Of a stretch of 19,436 nucleotides of DNA, positions 508 through 8,971 are shown in pieces. Source of the stretch: a virus (Duplodnaviria; Heunggongvirae; Uroviricota; Caudoviricetes); IMG/VR virus record IMGVR_UViG_2529292972_000014, one strand, 5' to 3'. The notes below the pieces were generated by a model. The model saw nothing but the letters and a program-made list of their open reading frames with translations. It did not search any database and was not told the DNA's origin. The position numbers and the translations under genes were made by a program. The first letter of the stretch is position 1; each line of letters opens with the position of its first letter.

Positions 508-900
508 ATGATGCGCCAATCACTTCAGGCTGTTTTACCTGAAATTTCAGGCAATAAAACGTCATTGCTGCGTAAATCGGTATGCAGCGATCTCCTCACT
601 CTTTTTAATTCTCCTCATTCGACATTACCGTCATTACTTGTTTCAGGCATGCCCGAGTGGCAAGTGCATAACCCGAGCGACAAACATCTCCAGAGCTGGT
701 ATTGCCGTCAGCTGCGTTCTGCACTGTTATTTCATGAGCCACGGATTGCGGCGTTGCAGGTTAATTTGAAAGAAGCGTACTGCCACACTCTGGCGATCAG
801 CCTTGAGATAATGCTGTACCACGACGATGAACCGCTAACGTTTGATCTGGTCTGGGATAATGGCGGTTGGCGCAGTGCGACGCTTGAGAATGTCAGCTAA
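508..900 (+). CDS. GPW/gp25-family protein, type VI secretion TssE-like baseplate component (host flank)
   Basis: ORF track 499..900 is called from a GTG; an ATG at 508 sits 9 nt after an aggag RBS. The C-terminal pattern ...[13 protein letters not shown]...[27 protein letters not shown] resembles the EPRL...W C-terminus of TssE/gp25-like proteins as recalled. Size (about 130 aa) fits. Confidence 0.45.
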
Positions 901-1438
901 GCACAATCTCCAGCTCGCGCAGTTCACGCCAGAAGCGTTCGGCAACTGGATTCATGCGGGTATTCATCCGGTATGCGTAGGCCTGAATCGGGATCACCAG
1001 TTCGTCCCGATTCAGCACAACGAGCTGCCCGCTGCGAATTTCTTGTTGGATGGCATACTCCGGCAGCCAGGCAATCCCACAGCCGTCGAGGGCAACCTGC
1101 TTTAAAAGCTCGCTCATCGAAGAGACAAAAAAGGTGCTGAAACTTAACTCACTGTGGCGCGTCAGGGTGCGATTAATCAATCGCCCCATGTAGGAGTTGC
1201 GGCTGTAATTCAGTAACGGAAAGTGTGGCTGCACGAGGTCAAAAAGTGCTTCTCCATGTTCGTCACTGGCGCAGACAGGGAACAATTGAGATTCAAATAA
1301 GCGAATGTGGTCAAACGGCGCTTCCAGCAAATCTTCGTCGTGAAAGGAAAAAATACAGTCACTTTGTCCTTCACGCAGTTTATCGACCGCTTCATCGACA
1401 TCAATGGCTTCAATCGCCCAGGTAAAGAGCGGCGGCAT
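893..1438 (-). pseudogene. LysR-family transcriptional regulator, C-terminal substrate-binding domain only (N-terminal HTH missing; likely disrupted by prophage insertion)
   Basis: The 181-aa ORF has LysR effector-domain features (...GCGIAWLPEYAIQQEIRSGQLVVL...). The frame stays open upstream only to a stop at 1529-1531, and no HTH-encoding sequence exists before the mom gene at 1621. Confidence 0.6.
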
Positions 1439-1511
1439 CTGGCTGATAATGGACGGTAACAGACCGAGGGAAAGAGAGTGTGCAGCGGCTATTATAGCGC
1501 GGCGATTTTTT

Positions 1512-1574
1512 TGATACCGATTTGCATTTCATTTGATACCGCTGAAAAACGCCGATACGCAACTTATTTGATAC
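1512..1574. repeat. Direct repeats of (T)TTGATAC(C) near the prophage terminus; candidate transposase end-binding sites
   Basis: tgatac at 1512-1517, 1534-1539 and 1569-1574, plus cgatac at 1553-1558, spaced about 16-22 bp, directly read from the sequence. Function inferred by analogy to Mu attR R1-R3 sites, though the motif differs from the Mu consensus. Confidence 0.35.
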
Positions 1575-1596
1575 TAAATCGGCGCTTTTCTTTTGA
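1550..1596. terminator. Possible bidirectional terminator downstream of mom (weak)
   Basis: Inverted repeat cgccgat (1550-1556) / atcggcg (1578-1584) with a 21-nt loop, flanked by an A5 run on the left and a T-rich run (cttttcttttgagtttt) on the right. The large loop makes this weak. Confidence 0.3.
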
Positions 1597-1620
1597 GTTT
1601 TAGAATGAGTTTTTAAGCGC

Positions 1621-2358
1621 TCATTCACTCTCTTTCAAACCAGTTTTAACTGTTTGTGGTTTTGGGTAAGGCTGGACTTTGAATAGCTTTGTGTTGAGGC
1701 GTTTTCTGGCCCTCTTGTTCAGAAACCGGATGTAACGAAACTGTCGGAACTTATGAACACTGGCTCTGTCAATATTAGCCCTCAGATGTTCACCTCGTTG
1801 TCCGCCTCGTTTAATGGCATTCCTGCAAATCTCGTGATACCACTCGCCATCAAGTTCATAGAATATTGATTCATGGCTGCCTACATAATCAAAATTGCTT
1901 GCCTGATACACGACACCAAGACAGCCACAACGCTCATCTGCAAACGACTGAACCCACTGTACCTGCGGATAAAGCTGCCTGATTAGCTTGAGCGCGTAAC
2001 TGATTGCCCTTGATTCGGAGTTTCTCGGCATACAGTCATGCAGCCATAGCCGGTTAAGCTCCATATATTCTCGGTTCTGCGTACCCGTTACGACGCGTGC
2101 ACCACTGTTTGGGTTAAGGGCGTAACCCCATTGCATTACGCCAACAAGTTCCCGTTCTGAAAATATGCCCAGATGAAGGTAGGAGTTATTTACGAAACGG
2201 TGGCTGTAATGTTTATTGACGATGACCAGTCTGGCCAGCCAGCAACTTATTGTCTCAACCCGCAACTCACGGGAGCCATAACCAACGATATTGTCGTTAT
2301 AGCGAATAAGTTCAGGCGTGCTGATGATTCGGGATGTGACTTGCTTTCTGTTCCCCAC
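1621..2358 (-). CDS. mom: Mom-family DNA modification protein (adenine modification, anti-restriction)
   Basis: 245-aa ORF immediately downstream of, and overlapping by 47 nt, a Com-like zinc-finger gene; located after the invertase at the prophage terminus exactly as in Mu. GTG start at 2358 with an aaggaa RBS about 9 nt upstream. Identity rests on context and size, not on a remembered sequence alignment. Confidence 0.75.
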
Positions 2359-2512
2359 GACAGGATTTCCTTGTGTATGTGGGGTGCTCTGTGGCGCTCG
2401 GAGATGTGATTTGATTGAGGGTTTTACAGCGCGGACATTTTACTTCCAGATAACTGAAACTGGCCCGTGCCAGTAGCTTATTGCAGTGTCGGCACCGTAT
2501 GTTTCGATACAT
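2312..2512 (-). CDS. com: Com-like zinc-finger translational activator of mom
   Basis: [18 protein letters not shown]...[10 protein letters not shown]...EHPT closely parallels the Mu Com pattern (IRCKNCNKLL...IRCPRCK...EHPT) as recalled. ATG at 2512 is preceded by an aggagg RBS; the ORF track's longer 2557 start is a TTG. Confidence 0.8.
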
Positions 2513-2555
2513 GACCGCATAACCTCCTGCTTTGTTGTTGATGCCTTTCTCATGC

Positions 2556-2698
2556 AATCGATCGACAAAAACGATCGATTCGATTTGTTTAATTGATACA
2601 ACAAATAGATTGAAAAGTCATCAACAATGATTCAGGGAGGTGATTATTTACTTAAAGAAAACGAAGAGTTAGGTGGTGAAAACGATCATAAAATGATC
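2556..2698. promoter_or_regulatory. GATC-rich palindromic region upstream of com-mom (candidate Dam-methylation-sensitive promoter/operator region)
   Basis: Perfect 9-bp inverted repeat aatcgatcg(2556-2564)/cgatcgatt(2572-2580) carrying GATC at 2560-2563 and 2573-2576. Second palindrome gatcat aaa atgatc (2684-2698) carrying GATC at 2684-2687 and 2695-2698. Mu mom is known to be controlled through clustered upstream GATC sites. Confidence 0.4.
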
Positions 2699-2784
2699 AT
2701 TTTATTGACTTTTTATACAGTGAAGGTAGGATCACGCGTATATGTAGTATGTTTCAAATCAACAGGATACTACATAAAAGTGAA

Positions 2785-2812
2785 ACCCAGCATAGCTGGA
2801 ACTATGCTGGGT
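2785..2812. repeat. Perfect 11-bp inverted repeat (acccagcatag ctggaa ctatgctgggt); stem-loop or dimeric protein-binding site
   Basis: Read directly from the sequence. On the minus strand it is followed by a U-rich stretch (ttcacttttatg), so it could terminate or insulate minus-strand read-through into com-mom. Confidence 0.5.
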
Positions 2813-2923
2813 CAATCTGTAAAAACTTGCATCAATGCTTTACTTCGAGCTCGTGGCGTATCCTATGATATTCCCCGGTCTCCTGTAAAGCAGAGATGCA
2901 TAAAAAGGAGATCTTTATCATGG

Positions 2924-3091
2924 ATGAAAGAGCCTGTTTGCCCTGCCTGTAAGACTCCCTTACAGCTCATCTATCGCCGTTCTCGATCTCAAAATGGCAA
3001 GACATACAAACCCAAAAATGCTTCCTGTTTCAGGATGCTGATATGTCCTGCCTGTTCTCCCAGGAGGGAAAATACACAAAACGTGCATTAA
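2924..3091 (+). CDS. Small zinc-ribbon protein (CPAC...29 aa...CPAC), divergent from com-mom; N-terminal extent uncertain (ORF open from 2627)
   Basis: Two CxxC pairs (MKEPVCPACKTPLQLIYRRSRSQNGKTYKPKNASCFRMLICPAC). aaggag RBS at 2905-2910. Ends in a convergent arrangement with the minus-strand 81-aa ORF across a GC-rich hairpin. Plus-strand position among minus-strand genes makes it less certain. Confidence 0.35.
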   Translation: MKEPVCPACKTPLQLIYRRSRSQNGKTYKPKNASCFRMLICPACSPRRENTQNVH

Positions 3092-3100
3092 CAAACTCAC

Positions 3101-3120
3101 CCGGCAGGGAAACCTGCCGG
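3101..3120. terminator. GC-rich hairpin with GAAA tetraloop between convergent ORFs (candidate bidirectional terminator)
   Basis: ccggcagg gaaa cctgccgg, an 8-bp perfect stem. Lies between the stop of the plus-strand ORF (3091) and the stop of the minus-strand 81-aa ORF (3130). U-rich flanks are imperfect on both strands. Confidence 0.45.
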
Positions 3121-3129
3121 TCGGTATTG

Positions 3130-3375
3130 TTACATCATAGTACCGTCAGTTCCGGGCTGAACCGGCTCTGGTTGCTCTACGGGTTGAGGATCATTTTCCG
3201 TGCTGTTTTCAGCCGGAGAACGGCCAACCATTCGGGCCAGCACTTCATCAACATATGCGTCGATTTGTGCCTCAAAATCCTTGCGAACCTGCGCCTTCAG
3301 CACGCGGTTCACTTCTTCAGAATAAAGTGCCTGTTTGACAAGCTCTTCAGTAACCGTGCCTTTAATCTCTGGCAT
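3130..3375 (-). CDS. Hypothetical 81-aa acidic, Pro/Glu-rich C-terminus protein
   Basis: Strong aaggag RBS 7 nt upstream of the ATG at 3375. Followed by the hairpin at 3101-3120. No family recognised. Confidence 0.5.
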   Translation of the reverse strand: MPEIKGTVTEELVKQALYSEEVNRVLKAQVRKDFEAQIDAYVDEVLARMVGRSPAENSTENDPQPVEQPEPVQPGTDGTMM

Positions 3376-3410
3376 GAATATTCTCCTTTTGCAGGTATAT
3401 TGCCCCGTTA

Positions 3411-3593
3411 TCAGAGCGGGGTCGGGTCGTTTGGGGATGACGGTGCCTGTGCTGTTTTACTGAGTTTTTCAGCTGCCGCATCATCAATTTTACGGCGAAT
3501 ATAATTTCTGATGACCTTATAACCACCGCTCACCAGATATAACGCACTGACCACAGCGCAGAAATAAAGCAGCATTGTATGAACGAATGTCAT
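3411..3593 (-). CDS. Hypothetical 60-aa small membrane protein (single N-terminal TM helix, charged C-terminus)
   Basis: Hydrophobic stretch MLLYFCAVVSALYLVSGGY followed by a basic/acidic tail. Plausible RBS (aaggtaagg) upstream of the ATG at 3593. No family recognised. Confidence 0.4.
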   Translation of the reverse strand: MTFVHTMLLYFCAVVSALYLVSGGYKVIRNYIRRKIDDAAAEKLSKTAQAPSSPNDPTPL

Positions 3594-3661
3594 ATAACCT
3601 TACCTTTGATATTGACTACATAATTCGTTATCGGGTAAAAACATCGAAGCGACTGATAACC

Positions 3662-3686
3662 ACTCCTTCGGGAGTATTTTTATTTT
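3662..3686 (+). terminator. Intrinsic-terminator-like hairpin on the plus strand (actcc-UUCG-ggagt followed by atttttatttt)
   Basis: 5-bp stem with a UUCG tetraloop and a T-rich tail, read directly. Oriented opposite to all neighbouring genes. Confidence 0.35.
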
Positions 3687-3705
3687 CCTTTATGGGTTAG
3701 GTAGC

Positions 3706-3742
3706 TCCCGCCAGCCATATCATGACCGGCGGGATTTTTTTA
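3706..3742 (+). terminator. Intrinsic-terminator-like hairpin on the plus strand (cccgcc...ggcggg followed by T7)
   Basis: GC-rich stem cccgcc(3707-3712)/ggcggg(3728-3733) followed by attttttta. Overlaps the stop codon of the minus-strand 679-aa gene. Confidence 0.4.
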
Positions 3743-5779
3743 TTCTGTTACCGCTTTTTTCACTTCCACCACAATGCTGTCAATCAGCACCGGGTAAGTT
3801 GCATTTTTTGTGATATCCGTTACGCGGAGTTTGTCCACCGGGAAAGTTCCTACTGGTGACTGCGTCAGGGTAAACGCGGCACCATCCTGACCATCAATAA
3901 CCGGAATAACCTGAAGGCTGTTATTTCCTGCAAAACGGAAGGCCAGCGTATGCCATTCATTATCAAATGCACCAAAGGTTCCCAGTTTCTGGTTATTTGT
4001 TGCCACTTTTGCATTGTGGTACATCACATTCAGGTCTTTTGCGTCTGTCTGGATGTAGAACGATGCCAGCAGATTATTCCCTGCATCCCCTGTCAGGGTG
4101 ACACCCTGCGGCAGAGAGGAAACCGGCCAGTAAAGCCCCATGACATACTGGTTTGCCACCAGGTCGCCAGGTACTTTAAAACGACAACTGATTAAACCAC
4201 CATTTTTCAGCAGTTCAGCACCAGTACCGGCATCATGATCCAGATACCAAGATGATTTACCTGTTTCCTTGGTCAGTTTCATTGCCTTACCACCTGTGCC
4301 TCCTGCATCACTGATAATTTCAGCTTTACCGCCAGCCGGCTCCCAGCCCTGGGCTTTCAGATTTCCTTCTGACTCACTGACACGATAAGACAGCAGTGTT
4401 GTGGTTACTGCTTCAGTTTCTGAAGGTGACGGCACTGGTGCTTCAGTTTCAGAAGATGGAACATCGGCTTTTACTGTGGTTCGCCCCGCATGAGTCAGAA
4501 CTGCCGTGGCCAGACGGTCGGAAATAATCCCACGACGTGCCCATGAACTGAAATGGCTGGCCCGGTCCGCAGATGTCCAGGTGGCGGCACTGTTACGCCA
4601 CGTTGAGCCGTAATAACCAATGGATTCAATATCCGGGTCTTCTGCCGGATTGTTGGTGGGTACATTCGCGTCATTTTCATCTGTCATTAATGGAACGAAA
4701 TGAATGTTTTTATCTGTTTTGTTTTTGTAGCCGCCATAGATTGCCTGGTATGCCGGTTCATTTTTCTGTTTCCAGAAATACGTGGTATCGCCACAAATCC
4801 ACGGAACGCCAGCAGCACTGCCACCGGTACACTGTTCCGCCTGTTCAGCCAGGTCTGCGCGGAATTTTTCCACCATCGCCAGAAACAGCGCGGAATGCTC
4901 CGTCGGCTTCGCATCAATATCAAACTCGCCCTGCATCCACACCACAGCAAGCAGGCGGTTTTTCGGGTTCTTCGCCAGTGCCGCTTTTGTCCGGCTGATT
5001 AAGTCCTTATACAGCGGCTTATCCACACCCCAGCGGGCTGAGTCCTCTGAAGCACCCGTGCTGTCACTGTACGTGCCGTCAGCACCCGCCGTGAATGCAG
5101 AACCACCACGGCAGCAGGGAACCAGCAGAATCCCCGCATCTGCCGGAATAAACGGCAGCAGTTTTTTGGCAATGTGAAGCCCCTGACCCACGGTGCCATA
5201 TTGCCCTTTAGCCACATCCGCTTTCGGGTGATTTTTTCCACTCATATCCTGCACATCATGCAGACAGTGGTCGGCCAGAATGATGTCGTTATACTGACAG
5301 GCTTTACCTCCCGGCGTGACTGTACTGCGACGGGCTAACTGCATAATACGCGGTTCGGGGCGGTCATATGTCTCCGGCAGTGGCAGACCTTCACCGTAAG
5401 CCATACCGTTTGACTGACCAGCAAGAACCACCACGTAATACCAGGAAGGGGAGCTGGAAGCAGTTTCATTTCCTGACGGACGGGTATGTGTTTCAGCATT
5501 ATCCCAGTCTGACGGTTCAGCAGTACCGGCAACATCAGCACTTAACGGAATGACCGCACCAATACCCGCTCCGGTAATTTCCACACTCGGATCACCGGAT
5601 ACTGGCCTTACCCACAGGCAATCCCGTGTATTAAAACTGATGAGACAGTCAGCAAATGTCATTCCTCCTTTTGTTTCGGCCGGAGGAAAGGGAGCCTCAA
5701 GAAATGCCGCTGTACCACCGGAAACTTTAACAGTAAAGTTTCCGGGCATTGATGATAGTTGAACCCATTTGGACGTCAT
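3740..5779 (-). CDS. SGNH/SASA-family carbohydrate esterase (sialate O-acetylesterase NanS-p-like) with C-terminal lectin/LamG-like beta-rich domain; phage accessory (moron) gene
   Basis: 679-aa ORF. Motifs YYVVVLAGQSNGMAYGEG (GQSN catalytic-Ser block), VVWMQGEFD (WxQGE block) and a later His-containing block are consistent with sialate O-acetylesterase-type SGNH hydrolases. C-terminal roughly 250 aa is beta-rich and lectin-like. Linker contains a duplicated SETEAPVPSPSETEA segment (direct repeat gcttcagtttc[t/a]gaag about 4410-4456). Confidence 0.65.
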   Translation of the reverse strand: MTSKWVQLSSMPGNFTVKVSGGTAAFLEAPFPPAETKGGMTFADCLISFNTRDCLWVRPVSGDPSVEITGAGIGAVIPLSADVAGTAEPSDWDNAETHTRPSGNETASSSPSWYYVVVLAGQSNGMAYGEGLPLPETYDRPEPRIMQLARRSTVTPGGKACQYNDIILADHCLHDVQDMSGKNHPKADVAKGQYGTVGQGLHIAKKLLPFIPADAGILLVPCCRGGSAFTAGADGTYSDSTGASEDSARWGVDKPLYKDLISRTKAALAKNPKNRLLAVVWMQGEFDIDAKPTEHSALFLAMVEKFRADLAEQAEQCTGGSAAGVPWICGDTTYFWKQKNEPAYQAIYGGYKNKTDKNIHFVPLMTDENDANVPTNNPAEDPDIESIGYYGSTWRNSAATWTSADRASHFSSWARRGIISDRLATAVLTHAGRTTVKADVPSSETEAPVPSPSETEAVTTTLLSYRVSESEGNLKAQGWEPAGGKAEIISDAGGTGGKAMKLTKETGKSSWYLDHDAGTGAELLKNGGLISCRFKVPGDLVANQYVMGLYWPVSSLPQGVTLTGDAGNNLLASFYIQTDAKDLNVMYHNAKVATNNQKLGTFGAFDNEWHTLAFRFAGNNSLQVIPVIDGQDGAAFTLTQSPVGTFPVDKLRVTDITKNATYPVLIDSIVVEVKKAVTE

Positions 5780-5878
5780 AATAATCAGCCTGTTCCTGAA
5801 TAAACTGAATTATCATATCCACAGACCGATAAACGCCATTTTGCGTTAATTCAGTAAAGGCCCAACAAAGGGAGCGTC

Positions 5879-6439
5879 TTATTTTTCCGAAACGCTCGCA
5901 GGATAATAACGATAAAGGGTTGAAAGGCCGATATCAAAAATAAGTGCCACCTGTCTTCGACTGACACCCCCGGCCAGTAAACGCCCGACCTGCTCGTATT
6001 GTTCCTGCGTGAGACGACGGGGTCTGCCGCCGGTTCGTCCCCTTTCACGGGCAGCTGCAAGACCAGCCCGTGTCCGTTCGACAATTAATTCACGCTCCAT
6101 TTCTGCCAGCGCACCCATTATGTGAAAAAAGAAGCGCCCCATGGGGGTTGACGTATCAATGTTGTCAGTAAGACTACGAAAATTTATCCCCTGTTGCTGT
6201 AATTCATCTGTCAGCGCAACAAGGTGGCGCATACTGCGCCCCAGCCTGTCCAGTTTCCAGACCATCAGTGTGTCACCGGGTTTTAGTTTCTTCAGTGCCC
6301 GCTTCAGTCCCGGCCGCTGTGTCGTTTTACCACTCATTTTATCTTCAAAAATCTGCTCACATCCTGCACATTCCAGCGCATTTCTTTGTAAACCTGTGTT
6401 CTGGTCATTTGTTGATACGCGTATATAGCCAATCAGCAT
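5879..6439 (-). CDS. gin: Serine DNA invertase, Gin/Pin/Cin/Hin family
   Basis: MLIGYIRVSTNDQNTGLQRNAL...WKLDRLGRSMRHL...GRFFFHIMGALAEMERELIVERT... is the canonical resolvase/invertase catalytic domain with a C-terminal HTH. Adjacent to a gix-like crossover site and the invertible fibre segment. Symbol gin chosen from Mu-like context; pin is equally possible. Confidence 0.93.
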   Translation of the reverse strand: MLIGYIRVSTNDQNTGLQRNALECAGCEQIFEDKMSGKTTQRPGLKRALKKLKPGDTLMVWKLDRLGRSMRHLVALTDELQQQGINFRSLTDNIDTSTPMGRFFFHIMGALAEMERELIVERTRAGLAAARERGRTGGRPRRLTQEQYEQVGRLLAGGVSRRQVALIFDIGLSTLYRYYPASVSEK

Positions 6440-6493
6440 GTATTTACCTTCCTTAAAAAGAGGTGGAAAGGCCTTTTAAAGCAGATATACGGC

Positions 6494-6519
6494 ATCCCTG
6501 AAACCTCGGTTTACGGGAT
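6494..6519. other. Invertase crossover site (gix/pix-like), left
   Basis: atccctgaaacc tc ggtttacgggat: two 12-bp half-sites in inverted orientation around a 2-bp core, resembling the gix half-site TTCCTGTAAACC as recalled. Confidence 0.7.
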
Positions 6520-6864
6520 ACTGTAAACAGGGCCGCGAATGCCCTGCCATCGAACGGAGCGGCTGTTGCAGCGAATAAACTCGCCACTCCAAGAAATATT
6601 AATGGTGTCCCATTTGACGGAACGCAGGATATAAATATTACATCGGGGATGACGCAGTCTGTGGCTGACTCACGTTATGTTCAAAGCATTCGAAGAGGTT
6701 CAAGGTCAACGATTGGAATGCAATATAATATTTTTGAGGTTCCTGACGGATGCGTACTTACAGGGCTTGATGTCGCTGGTGATGGTAATGCAACGGTAAC
6801 CGCATATTATCGACCTGTTCAGTTTCTGATAGATGGTTCGTGGAAAACAGCTTCCAGCGCATAA
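6508..6864 (+). CDS. Alternative (currently silent) tail-fibre C-terminal segment; no own start codon, expressed only after inversion fuses it to the constant fibre N-terminus
   Basis: Frame open from the crossover site; translates GLRDTVNRAANALPSNGGAVAANKLATPRNINGVPFDGTQDINITSGM...TAYYRPVQFLIDGSWKTASSA, paralogous to residues 178-303 of the expressed fibre. Confidence 0.6.
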   Translation, partial: GLRDTVNRAANALPSNGAAVAANKLATPRNINGVPFDGTQDINITSGMTQSVADSRYVQSIRRGSRSTIGMQYNIFEVPDGCVLTGLDVAGDGNATVTAYYRPVQFLIDGSWKTASSA

Positions 6865-6943
6865 AAGTGCAGTAGTTCAAAAAACAGATTATCTGAATAA
6901 ATATATGATGATTTTGTCTTTTCAACAAAAACAAGGTGAAATA

Positions 6944-7465
6944 ATGGAGCTTATTAACGTAAAACGATATTACCCGGAACACAAACCCTATGGTGAGGAT
7001 GTTCAGTATTTCCAGAGTGAGGACGGAAGGGATTTTTATGAATCTATCCCGCTTTTCACAAAGAAATACAAACTCTGTATTTCGCCTGTAACGGGTATTA
7101 TCTGCTCTGTTGCTGAAGATGTCTCTGCTTTATATCCGGCAGGTTTTACTGTTGTTGAAGTGGACGAACTGCCGGAAGGTGTGAATATTGACGGTAACTG
7201 GCAGTTTTCTGATGGCCTGATATCAAAGGTGCCGGTAAACTGGAAGACGGTTGCTGAAAAGCGCCGCTCATCGCTGCTCCAGGAAGCCAACGAAACTGTG
7301 GATGACTGGAAAACGGAATTAAAACTGGACATGATTAGCGATGAAAATAAATTACAGCTGACGCGCTGGATGGCGTATATCCGACAGCTTAAAGAAATGC
7401 ACTTTAATGATATTGCCAGTGAGGGGCATTACCAGGCGATTCCCTGGCCGGAAAAACCGGAATAA
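6944..7465 (+). CDS. Tail fibre assembly protein (Tfa/U family), belonging to the silent fibre arm
   Basis: aaggtg RBS 7 nt upstream of the ATG at 6944. C-terminus ...QAIPWPEKPE matches the conserved Tfa ending (WPxKPE). The ORF track's longer 6833 start is unlikely. Confidence 0.8.
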   Translation: MELINVKRYYPEHKPYGEDVQYFQSEDGRDFYESIPLFTKKYKLCISPVTGIICSVAEDVSALYPAGFTVVEVDELPEGVNIDGNWQFSDGLISKVPVNWKTVAEKRRSSLLQEANETVDDWKTELKLDMISDENKLQLTRWMAYIRQLKEMHFNDIASEGHYQAIPWPEKPE

Positions 7466-7499
7466 TTCAGAGGGTGCATTCAGCACCCTTTTCTGTGGT

Positions 7500-8411
7500 T
7501 TACACTGAACTTACCGTTCTCCAGGCATTATTAATATAAATCTGAACCGGGCGATAATAGACCCCACCGATATTGTCCGCAGACCGGGAGCCGGTTTCCT
7601 GCACGTTAATTCCGGAAAGCATACAACCGGAAGGTGCGCTGTAATTCCATGACATTTCATTGCCTCCGGGTGAATGATAGCTCTGTGCTCCAAGCTGAAC
7701 ATTCTGTACATACCGGCCATCTGCGGTTGACTGCGTCATTCCTGACGTGATGTTGATATCCAGCGTTCCGTCAAAAGGAACACCATTAATATTTCTTGGG
7801 GTGGCGAGTCTGTTTGCTGCCACGGCGGTTCCACCCGATGGCAGGGCATCAGCAGCCTTATTTACCGTTTCCCGTAAACCGACGTTATCGATAAAAGCGC
7901 CTTTATCCGGAATGTCTGCGCCGTTCTGCTCCCTGCGCAGGTAACGGTTATCACCTTCGCTTTTGCTGTAAACATCCAGATTATTACGGGCGGTTCCCGC
8001 ATTCTCCAGGTCGGCAAGGTTCTGATCCTTCGCCAGAGCATTAACGTCACCGGGACCAAGACTGTTTTTTGTGGCAAGCGCCCCAAGACCAAGATAACCA
8101 CGGGCAAGACGCTGGGCTTCCGCACCGGCATCAGCAATTTCTTTCAGGTTGTTTTTCCGGGAAAAGGCATTCGCAGCGATAATGGCTTTAATGGACAGCG
8201 TAAGCTGGTTTAACTGCGCCTTATCCGGCTGAATACTGGCTTCAGCCAGAATATTCAGCAGTTCGGCCTGGAGAATATTCAGCCAGTCCTGACCAATCCA
8301 GCTGATACCTTTTTGTCCGTCACCTTCGGTAAACCAGGTGGTGGTATTACTCTGCGCCGGTGCCAGCGCAGGCATATTCGCCACGCCGGAATTATTATCA
8401 ACATGGAACAT
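7500..8411 (-). CDS. Tail fibre protein (constant N-terminal part residues 1-177 plus currently expressed variable tip 178-303)
   Basis: ATG at 8411 overlaps the upstream stop by 1 nt (taatg). C-terminus ...GGVYYRPVQIYINNAWRTVSSV resembles myovirus fibre C-termini. The right crossover site lies at codons 177-178. Confidence 0.8.
   Translation of the reverse strand: MFHVDNNSGVANMPALAPAQSNTTTWFTEGDGQKGISWIGQDWLNILQAELLNILAEASIQPDKAQLNQLTLSIKAIIAANAFSRKNNLKEIADAGAEAQRLARGYLGLGALATKNSLGPGDVNALAKDQNLADLENAGTARNNLDVYSKSEGDNRYLRREQNGADIPDKGAFIDNVGLRETVNKAADALPSGGTAVAANRLATPRNINGVPFDGTLDINITSGMTQSTADGRYVQNVQLGAQSYHSPGGNEMSWNYSAPSGCMLSGINVQETGSRSADNIGGVYYRPVQIYINNAWRTVSSV
7869..7894. other. Invertase crossover site (gix/pix-like), right, inside the tail-fibre gene
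   Basis: ttcccgtaaacc ga cgttatcgataa: left half matches the gix half-site 11/12, right half matches the TTATCnnAAACC consensus 9/12. Core ga is the reverse complement of core tc in the left site, as required for inversion. Confidence 0.6.
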
Positions 8412-8971
8412 TAAATATTCTCCTCTTCGTGACTGTTTGCATATACGTAAATAAACGTCTGCCATGCAGGCTTATAACGGTTCAGAATACATTCCAGCGC
8501 ACCGCCTTCATAAATACGCAGCGGCGTGAGAATATCATCCAGCACATTCATATTCCGGTAGCCGGTTTCACTGTTAATCGTGACAATACTGACCCACTGT
8601 GAATCCGGTGATGGCTGAATATCTATTTCATAACCAAACTCTGCCGCAAACCGGATATAAAATTCACGGTTAAGAGAGGGTTTCATCCGGTATTTATTCC
8701 CGGCATAACGCTGACGCTCCTGAATGGTTGCGCCGGTCATATCACATTCCGGTAACCCCAGATAACGCTCCCAGTCTTCCAGCAGCAGACGGGATGAATC
8801 AGGAAAACGTTCTGCCAGCATCTGGTTACCGGTCCAGGAAACACGCTCCGTGGAATGACTGAGGCCCAGGCACAAAGCCGCAAGAACGGATGACGGCCGC
8901 TTATCCCATGCCAGCCCGTCAGGCAGCAACTGCAACAGGGCGCGCTGATGCGGGGTCAGGGTTACAGCCAT
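8411..8971 (-). CDS. Mu gp48-like baseplate/tail protein (DUF2313, YmfQ-like)
   Basis: 186 aa; position between the baseplate J-like gene and the tail fibre gene. Confidence 0.65.
   Translation of the reverse strand: MAVTLTPHQRALLQLLPDGLAWDKRPSSVLAALCLGLSHSTERVSWTGNQMLAERFPDSSRLLLEDWERYLGLPECDMTGATIQERQRYAGNKYRMKPSLNREFYIRFAAEFGYEIDIQPSPDSQWVSIVTINSETGYRNMNVLDDILTPLRIYEGGALECILNRYKPAWQTFIYVYANSHEEENI

Follow-up and report, generated by a model that had tools for sequence, protein, structure and literature searches.

The island of 3.3 kb that separates a Gin-like serine DNA invertase gene from com and mom on the minus strand of IMG/VR record IMGVR_UViG_2529292972_000014, a 19,436-nucleotide (nt) stretch of tailed-virus DNA (Caudoviricetes; hereafter "the window"), most probably holds a known phage module in a new genomic setting. 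At a probability of about 0.78, we read it as the conserved three-gene NanS-p cassette of lambdoid Shiga toxin (Stx) phages, a module located there between stx and the lysis genes, which in the Sp18 lineage of E. coli Mu-like prophages is carried between invertase and com and would provide extracellular sialate de-O-acetylation via the lytic cycle. The cassette region corresponds to ECs4993-4996 of Escherichia coli strain Sakai and includes, in reading order on the minus strand, a nanS-p homologue (3740-5779; ECs4993), a DUF1378 gene (3411-3593; ECs4994), and a DUF826 gene (3130-3375; ECs4995). All open reading frames (ORFs) named in the initial annotation of this DNA, including a divergent zinc-ribbon ORF (ECs4996), are present where it had placed them. 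That annotation had also regarded the island as inexplicable from known phage biology, a view that no longer holds now that its cargo can be named as NanS-p, DUF1378, and DUF826.

The product of the largest gene, 679 amino acids (aa) long, is by homology a NanS-p-type SGNH/SASA sialate O-acetylesterase combined with a lectin-like carbohydrate-binding jelly-roll. It comprises a Mu-type N-terminal beta domain (aa 1-~78), an SSSP-containing linker, the SASA/SGNH esterase domain (aa ~104-428), a Pro/Ser/Thr/Glu-rich linker, and a lectin-like DUF6645 jelly-roll (aa ~459-674). The catalytic domain was recognized by Pfam (PF03629) and matched E. coli NanS/YjhS (PDB 3pt5) with an E value of 1.9e-118 over aa 104-428, and the lectin-like domain was recognized as PF20350 (E = 2e-69) and matched PDB 6yp6, the C-terminal lectin-like domain of phage phi24B NanS-p (E = 1e-111 over aa 459-674). 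These matches bear out the esterase/lectin reading that had been given to this protein from the letters alone. SGNH-type motifs are kept (GQSN at 121, RASH at 406), as are, at the expected spacing, all four aromatics of the proposed sugar site (Y545, Y550, Y575, and F646); both the NanS-p block motifs (GQSN; RSSH/RASH) and the list of sugar-site residues are those named in PMC10462455. The protein has no signal peptide, as there is no hydrophobic N-terminal segment in its first 60 aa (maximum Kyte-Doolittle value of 0.85 in a 15-residue window). Several NanS-p proteins have been found to de-O-acetylate 5-N-acetyl-9-O-acetylneuraminic acid (Neu5,9Ac2) and mucin glycans and to allow enterohemorrhagic E. 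coli (EHEC) to grow on them (PMC8065619).

Outside its N-terminus, the window protein closely resembles the NanS-p proteins of Stx phages. Its esterase and DUF6645 domains are 77-81% identical over aa 100-676 to those of 933W (L0105/z1466) and phi24B (vb_24B_21, also called gp84; PDB 6yp6), with 81% identity over the same residues to NanS-p of Stx phage 1720a-02, and the catalytic motifs, the sugar-site aromatics, the succession of DUF1378 and DUF826 downstream, the absence of a signal peptide, and an SSP-type linker motif are all common to both. The two differ in that the Stx-phage proteins begin with DUF1737, whereas the window protein has an unrelated beta domain of ~78 aa instead, and in their location: the lambdoid gene lies in the Q-dependent late operon, between stx (or Q) and holin S, whereas the window gene lies after the invertase gene of a Mu-like prophage, between invertase and com. 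Chromosomal E. coli NanS (YjhS) has a homologous catalytic domain, and 9-O-acetyl sialate esterase chemistry is presumably common to both enzymes; however, chromosomal NanS is a single-domain protein of ~326 aa that belongs to the NanR-regulated sialoregulon and has neither the extra N- and C-terminal domains nor DUF1378/DUF826 partners.

The two small ORFs, for which no recognizable family had been seen initially, both belong to Pfam families: DUF1378 (PF07125, E = 1e-38) for the 60-aa product of ECs4994, and DUF826 (PF05696, E = 3e-15) for the 81-aa product of ECs4995. From its hydropathy, the DUF1378 protein has a single N-terminal transmembrane helix followed by a basic/acidic tail (isoelectric point of 9.3), and the DUF826 protein is acidic (isoelectric point of 4.3), with ~50 conserved N-terminal residues and a Pro/Glu-rich tail. 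Searching NCBIfam and PDB sequences with the small proteins gave no match. They are 54% and 47% identical, respectively, to the copies of Stx phage 1720a-02, where the order is nanS-p, a 60-aa DUF1378 protein, an 81-aa DUF826 protein, holin S, and endolysin, i.e., the same cassette order and the same sizes as in the window, and DUF826 and DUF1378 genes have been described between nanS-p and S in Stx phages (PMC10462455). To place this arrangement in context, we mapped the neighbors of DUF1378 in 80 viral loci retrieved via DUF1378 alone, a sample biased to E. coli phages. In every locus that included upstream sequence, NanS-p immediately preceded DUF1378, and with one exception (L094) DUF826 immediately followed it in those reaching far enough downstream. 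Of these loci, 25 were Mu-like, with an invertase gene upstream and com plus either mom or a C5 cytosine DNA methyltransferase gene downstream, and the other 55 were lambdoid, with holin S and endolysin downstream. The occurrence of the trio in two unrelated phage backbones thus suggests that DUF1378 and DUF826 are tied to the esterase rather than to the lysis cassette. In three of the lambdoid loci (L067, L070, and L078), the esterase (SASA) domain has been lost and DUF1737 is joined straight to the lectin domain, with DUF1378 and DUF826 kept.

What sets the window protein apart is its N-terminal domain (N-domain), encoded at 5546-5779 on the minus strand in place of the lambdoid DUF1737. No PF08410 (DUF1737) match was found in the protein by Pfam, and homology to lambdoid NanS-p starts at aa ~100, with none on the N-terminal side of this point; at the DNA level, homology spans 3751-5441. 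Among the compared proteins, Mu-type ones carry PF03629 and PF20350 only, and lambdoid-type ones carry PF08410 as well. The N-domain (~78 residues) is 55-59% identical across Mu-type alleles, including residues 1-10. In many database entries, the in-frame Met11 is taken as the start, giving a protein of 669 aa; the 679-aa start is supported because N-domain conservation among Mu-type alleles begins at residue 1. A word-indexed sequence search with the N-domain returned fragments of the same protein only, and an exhaustive profile search against 1.84 billion representative proteins returned five matches, three of which could be retrieved and proved to be truncated gene calls running from the N-domain into the esterase domain, the other two being fragments of 62 and 26 aa. 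Truncated calls aside, the N-domain was thus seen only in fusion with the esterase domain, and all readable contexts were Mu-like prophages.

Among the loci compared, then, N-domain type as judged from sequence tracks phage type, with DUF1737 in lambdoid phages and the Mu-type domain in Mu-like ones. Two loci depart from this pattern (L035, 608-4658, and L057, 27-7079), in which a protein with the lambdoid DUF1737 N-terminus is followed by DUF1378, DUF826, and Mu-like com and mom. These look like lambdoid/Mu-like recombinants through the common nanS-p body, or else like assembly chimeras formed at a multi-copy gene. In L057, an N6 methylase gene and a gene for a Q-like antiterminator lie upstream of nanS-p. 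The Mu-type N-domain also occurs in a diverged Mu-like prophage of an enterobacterium other than E. coli, in an esterase gene (L118, 6792-8461) just after the invertase gene; two extra small ORFs (58 and 87 aa) stand between these two genes, and the contig ends within the esterase gene.

Next, we compared the invertase-to-com interval across Mu-like phages. From invertase stop to com start, it measures ~3.37 kb in the window versus 94 bp between the gin stop and com start of Mu (AF083977), where it is occupied by the mom promoter, so that the insertion is, as had been proposed, absent from Mu. The same gap is 82 bp in Yersinia phage vB_YpM_6, and in Edwardsiella, Pantoea, and other Mom-bearing prophages the invertase or tail-fiber chaperone gene lies ~120-280 bp from com; the cassette is absent from Mu and from all other Mom-bearing phages compared. 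By contrast, it occupies the same junction in every Sp18-type prophage examined, a set that includes O157 prophages, a Mu-like phage inside Stx phages (LC727881), strains 03_3503, NCCP 13905, and CI5, and metagenomic contigs. The variable parts are limited to the DUF826-to-com spacer and the modification gene that follows com, which is mom in some loci and in others encodes a 350-aa C5 cytosine methyltransferase. The idea that this junction is a variable hotspot with different cargo is therefore not borne out, since the same three genes recur in all Sp18-type loci and the junction is empty and tight elsewhere. We also looked for a remnant of a Mu-type gin 3' end adjoining com; short matches seen by eye (CTGTATAAAAA and ATCAATTAA) had BLAST E values of 0.03-1.4, and this candidate was dropped.

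Within the Sp18-type set, NanS-p alleles range from ~60 to 94% identity. Strain 03_3503 shares 100% identity with the window in its invertase and 99% in DUF826, whereas NanS-p and DUF1378 are only ~60% identical, a pattern suggesting that alleles are exchanged by recombination. Ratios of non-synonymous to synonymous substitution rates (dN/dS) are 0.13-0.20 for nanS-p, 0.17-0.25 for DUF1378, and 0.13-0.14 for DUF826, i.e., all three cassette genes are under purifying selection. Synonymous divergence (dS) is 1.1-1.8 for the cassette versus 1.6-2.1 for the invertase gene, and being of the same order, it fits an old acquisition that has since diverged along with the phage. A near-full-length match to the part comprising DUF1378, DUF826, and spacer was found in ~168 of 5,426 complete E. 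coli genomes, and at least 128 complete genomes have all three cassette ORFs intact.

Taken together, these results are consistent with an enzyme that would de-O-acetylate extracellular Neu5,9Ac2 and mucin sialoglycans, by analogy with its characterized homologues, and that would reach this substrate through the phage lytic cycle, being released at lysis and/or displayed on virions. The exchange of the N-terminal domain would then adapt the enzyme to another particle or binding partner, and the outcome would be de-acetylated sialic acid for the lysogen population, a phage-mucus interaction, or both. A comparable design is seen in enzymatic or glycan-binding capsid decoration proteins such as phi24B gp84 and T4 Hoc, the latter a model for mucus adherence, in which small virion-binding domains are combined with outward-facing carbohydrate-active or carbohydrate-binding domains; virion association is predicted for the window protein, whose N-domain has no detectable similarity to DUF1737 or Hoc. 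For phi24B, a 2026 preprint reports that the NanS-p homologue gp84 is among the most abundant virion proteins and decorates the capsid, its DUF1737 forming a hexamer bound within the central hexons of a T=9 shell, and that it self-cleaves at SSP-containing linkers (bioRxiv 10.64898/2026.04.10.717836). The linker of the window protein likewise carries SSSP at aa 108-111. Because DUF1737 anchors this esterase to the capsid in phi24B, the N-terminal swap is best read as the enzyme having been re-fitted to another virion or partner. A bolder and rather speculative version, to which we give distinctly less credence, is that the Mu-type N-domain could be a new virion anchor, analogous to DUF1737 and of unrelated fold, through which Sp18-type phages would carry the esterase and lectin on their capsid or tail and interact with mucus, with DUF1378 and DUF826 as dedicated partners for assembly, processing, or delivery of the esterase in both lambdoid and Mu-like phages. 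Two observations speak, at least in part, against the reading of the island given in the initial annotation: the gene set is conserved in place in related phages, and a close homologue, gp84, has a documented virion-structural role (bioRxiv 10.64898/2026.04.10.717836).

Several observations weigh against this picture of a phage-delivered enzyme. The virion evidence for phi24B comes from a preprint on a podovirus with a T=9 capsid (bioRxiv 10.64898/2026.04.10.717836), and Mu has no decoration or cement proteins (PMC11915804). An AlphaFold2 model of the N-domain, built from six sequences, is all-beta and of marginal confidence (mean predicted local distance difference test score of 55, with 60-74 for the core of residues 1-70), and Foldseek searches of BFVD and PDB with this model returned weak cupin-like and small uncharacterized phage-protein matches, none with E ≤ 0.001 and none resembling a known capsid or tail anchor. 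That DUF1378 and DUF826 work with the esterase is indicated by a single kind of evidence, synteny, in a survey biased as stated above. A C-dependent late promoter before nanS-p or com was also considered and rejected: the Mu late-promoter box CATAACCCC, which we derived from the four late promoters annotated in Mu, is matched nowhere on the minus strand of the window, and its five plus-strand matches equal the number expected by chance. Other promoter-like matches in the island region are weak only, and ECs4993-4996 are not named, nor were transcript data for them found, in the searchable literature. The activator of the Sp18-type phage may have another specificity than Mu C.

The most serious competitor to delivery through the lytic cycle is that nanS-p acts purely as a lysogenic-conversion metabolic gene, transcribed in the repressed prophage, e.g., by read-through from the invertase gene, and serving host nutrition via the Nan pathway only. 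Mu gin is constitutively expressed, the cassette is co-oriented with the invertase gene and lies outside the tail operon, and a terminator scan detected no terminator-like site in the invertase-to-nanS-p spacer (5780-5878, minus strand). An alignment of seven Mu-type loci showed that blocks TTGAATT..CGCAAAA and TATGAT / TATTCT (a possible -10 element) persist in this spacer across alleles diverged by ~35%, and both a promoter or regulatory site within it and read-through from the invertase gene are possible. A contribution to lysogen fitness, as had been suggested for the island at the outset, is moreover the standard published view of NanS-p, which is held to give lysogens a growth advantage on Neu5,9Ac2 (PMC8065619, PMC10462455). 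However, without a signal peptide an intact lysogen could not place the protein outside the cell, the lambdoid gene is a late gene co-induced with stx (PMC10462455), and a lineage-specific exchange of the N-domain would be difficult to account for if the enzyme were free and purely metabolic, in view of the DUF1737 capsid anchor described in the phi24B preprint. On balance, we consider host nutrition as the exclusive role unlikely, though well worth keeping in mind.

Two further explanations carry much less weight. An anti-phage defense or superinfection-exclusion island, in which the small membrane protein and its partners would block incoming phages, had been put forward in the initial annotation and could draw on the accessory position at the prophage end, on the presence of DUF1378, a small membrane protein, among other small proteins of unassigned function, as well as on the replacement of mom by a C5 methyltransferase gene in relatives, which marks this prophage end as mosaic. 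Yet PADLOC matched none of the four proteins significantly (best E = 0.05), the cargo does not change whereas defense hotspots typically vary, the dominant gene encodes a well-characterized carbohydrate esterase, and DUF1378 and DUF826 travel strictly with nanS-p, all of which makes a defense function highly improbable. Even harder to sustain is the notion that the island is decaying passenger DNA, a non-functional remnant of recombination with a lambdoid prophage: lambdoid/Mu-like junctions through nanS-p do exist (L035 and L057) and the region of the fourth ORF is visibly decaying or variable, but the cassette ORFs are intact in the at least 128 genomes noted above, in alleles diverged by 35-40%, with dN/dS of 0.13-0.25 and with catalytic and binding residues kept. 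The conserved NanS-p cassette acting through the lytic cycle is thus the explanation we prefer.

Four strong stem-loops had been noted in the island, and all four stand out from shuffled sequences (z-scores from -2.4 to -6.5). The one at 3706-3734 (minus strand, -23.2 kcal/mol, z = -5.3) directly follows the nanS-p stop and consists of an A-run and a GC-rich stem of 13 bp; it has no sense-strand U-tract, and the sense RNA is more stable than the antisense RNA (-23.2 versus -15.4 kcal/mol). A hairpin of this make, with different sequences, recurs after the nanS-p stop in the compared Mu-type and lambdoid cassettes (L004, 3950-3985; L007, 5985-6025). Between the convergent DUF826 and zinc-ribbon ORFs, the hairpin at 3089-3132 (-22.9 kcal/mol, z = -3.7) marks the cassette end, and a terminator-like hairpin also follows DUF826 in the lambdoid and CI5 versions. 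The hairpin at 2785-2812 (minus strand, -21.5 kcal/mol, z = -6.5), in the upstream part of the fourth ORF, is followed by a T-rich tail and resembles a terminator placed before the region that regulates com. Finally, nanS-p codons 12-21, just after Met11, form a perfect 12-bp hairpin (5718-5745, minus strand, -16.6 kcal/mol, z = -2.4); a conserved RNA element at this position was rejected, as the hairpin is allele-specific and diverged alleles have a different one enclosing the Met11 AUG. Overall, 12 terminator-like sites were found versus 4.8 ± 2.0 in shuffled sequences, and an Rfam search of 1400-6700 gave nothing significant.

The fourth ORF of the island was confirmed as present but not as a gene of its annotated length. 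As listed, it is a divergent frame of 154 aa (ECs4996; 2627-3091, plus strand), intact in only some relatives: LC727881 has it split, the 03_3503 annotation marks it as frameshifted, NCCP 13905 keeps a truncated form, and CI5 lacks it. Alignment revealed a 1-nt indel just after an ATG preceded by AAGGAG, which in relatives opens a separate ORF of 56-64 aa, and the extra base in the window fuses the zinc-ribbon frame to 99 upstream codons, which L002 and L005 have out of frame with it. In both of these loci, the zinc-ribbon part (CPAC..CPAC) stays 100% identical, with two synonymous differences. Hence, the real gene is probably a 55-aa CPAC..CPAC zinc-ribbon gene with an AAGGAG ribosome-binding site (2924-3091, plus strand), fused upstream by the indel, and the upstream part (2627-2923, plus strand), which is broken, frameshifted, truncated, or absent in relatives, is probably non-coding. 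L006, L007, and L032-34 lack this gene and have in its place a 66-aa ORF on the opposite strand; neither the zinc-ribbon ORF nor the 66-aa ORF had a significant Pfam or PHROG match. The com-upstream regulatory region (2513-2650, minus strand) is conserved and is kept in CI5 (L007) to about this extent. At 2556-2580, 45-70 nt upstream of com, it includes a palindrome (AATCGATCG..CGATCGATT) that holds two GATC sites. Only by eye does this palindrome resemble the Dam-site region that precedes the Mu mom promoter, BLAST having given no significant match, and it differs from that region in lying nearer to com and in having no recognizable Mu C-binding sequence.

With respect to its host context, the window is, on the basis of sequence identity, the right end of a transposable Mu-like prophage of the Sakai Sp18 type from E. 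coli O157, Sp18 being the Mu-like prophage of strain Sakai (PMC2669165, PMC7430833). From ~1493 onward, it matches many E. coli O157:H7 genomes at 100% identity, and the sequence to the left is strain-dependent; comparison of ends places the prophage right end at ~1493 (TATAGCGCGGCG...). The first 500 bases of the window have a G+C content of 33%, and the insertion target is a LysR-family regulator gene, of which the substrate-binding half alone lies on the right-end side (893-1438, minus strand). Because other strains carry the phage in other genes, it has evidently transposed. The minus-strand phage genes are ordered mom, com, island, Gin-like invertase, invertible tail-fiber segment, and baseplate and tail genes, and a serine invertase, a Com zinc ribbon, and Mom are all recognized by Pfam in the order found in Mu. 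Forming the downstream boundary of the island, mom (1621-2358, minus strand; Pfam Mom) encodes a protein 79% identical to Mu Mom, and with com (2312-2512, minus strand; Pfam Zn_ribbon_Com) its DNA is 67% identical to that of Mu by BLAST. The invertase gene at the upstream boundary (5879-6439, minus strand) encodes Resolvase (E = 1e-51) and HTH_7 domains and is 75% identical to Mu Gin by tblastn. The window thus has in common with the Mu right end (gin, Pmom, com, mom) a Gin-like invertase, Com, Mom, a GATC cluster upstream of com, and an invertible tail-fiber segment, and differs from it in the cassette and in the missing C-box consensus.

The invertible segment (6589-7799) is bounded by inverted repeats of 95 nt (6589-6683 and 7705-7799) that are 79% complementary. 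It holds an alternative fiber C-terminus (6649-6864, plus strand) and a single Caudo_TAP chaperone gene (6833-7465, plus strand), and in the present orientation the fiber gene (7500-8465, minus strand) has no chaperone gene downstream. At the other side of the island, several close relatives have mom replaced by a gene for a C5 cytosine DNA methyltransferase of 350 aa, directly behind and overlapping a near-identical com (L002, 4906-5958; L007, 3749-4801; L032, 9792-10844; also L036, L038, and L051), which suggests that in these relatives Com-type translational control is coupled to a different DNA-modification enzyme.

Overall, the island represents cargo of a known kind in a new setting, the new elements being the Mu-type N-terminal domain and the Mu-like genomic context. 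Few cargo genes of pathogenic E. coli prophages are as widespread as those for NanS-p esterases, which are believed to assist EHEC in using O-acetylated sialic acids of mucin as a nutrient, and ECs4993 is an additional nanS-p copy to be counted when nanS-p redundancy is dissected in O157 strains. For annotation, the "hypothetical proteins" ECs4993-4995 can now be named, and ECs4996 should probably shrink to the 55-aa zinc-ribbon gene. Interest in the cassette would grow if the predicted display on virions were confirmed, or if the two small partners proved to have a role. More broadly, the presence of the same enzyme with the same two partner genes in an unrelated Mu-like phage, with the N-domain alone exchanged, suggests that the cassette is one functional unit moving between phage types and that its N-domain looks like an adaptor fitting the enzyme to a given phage.

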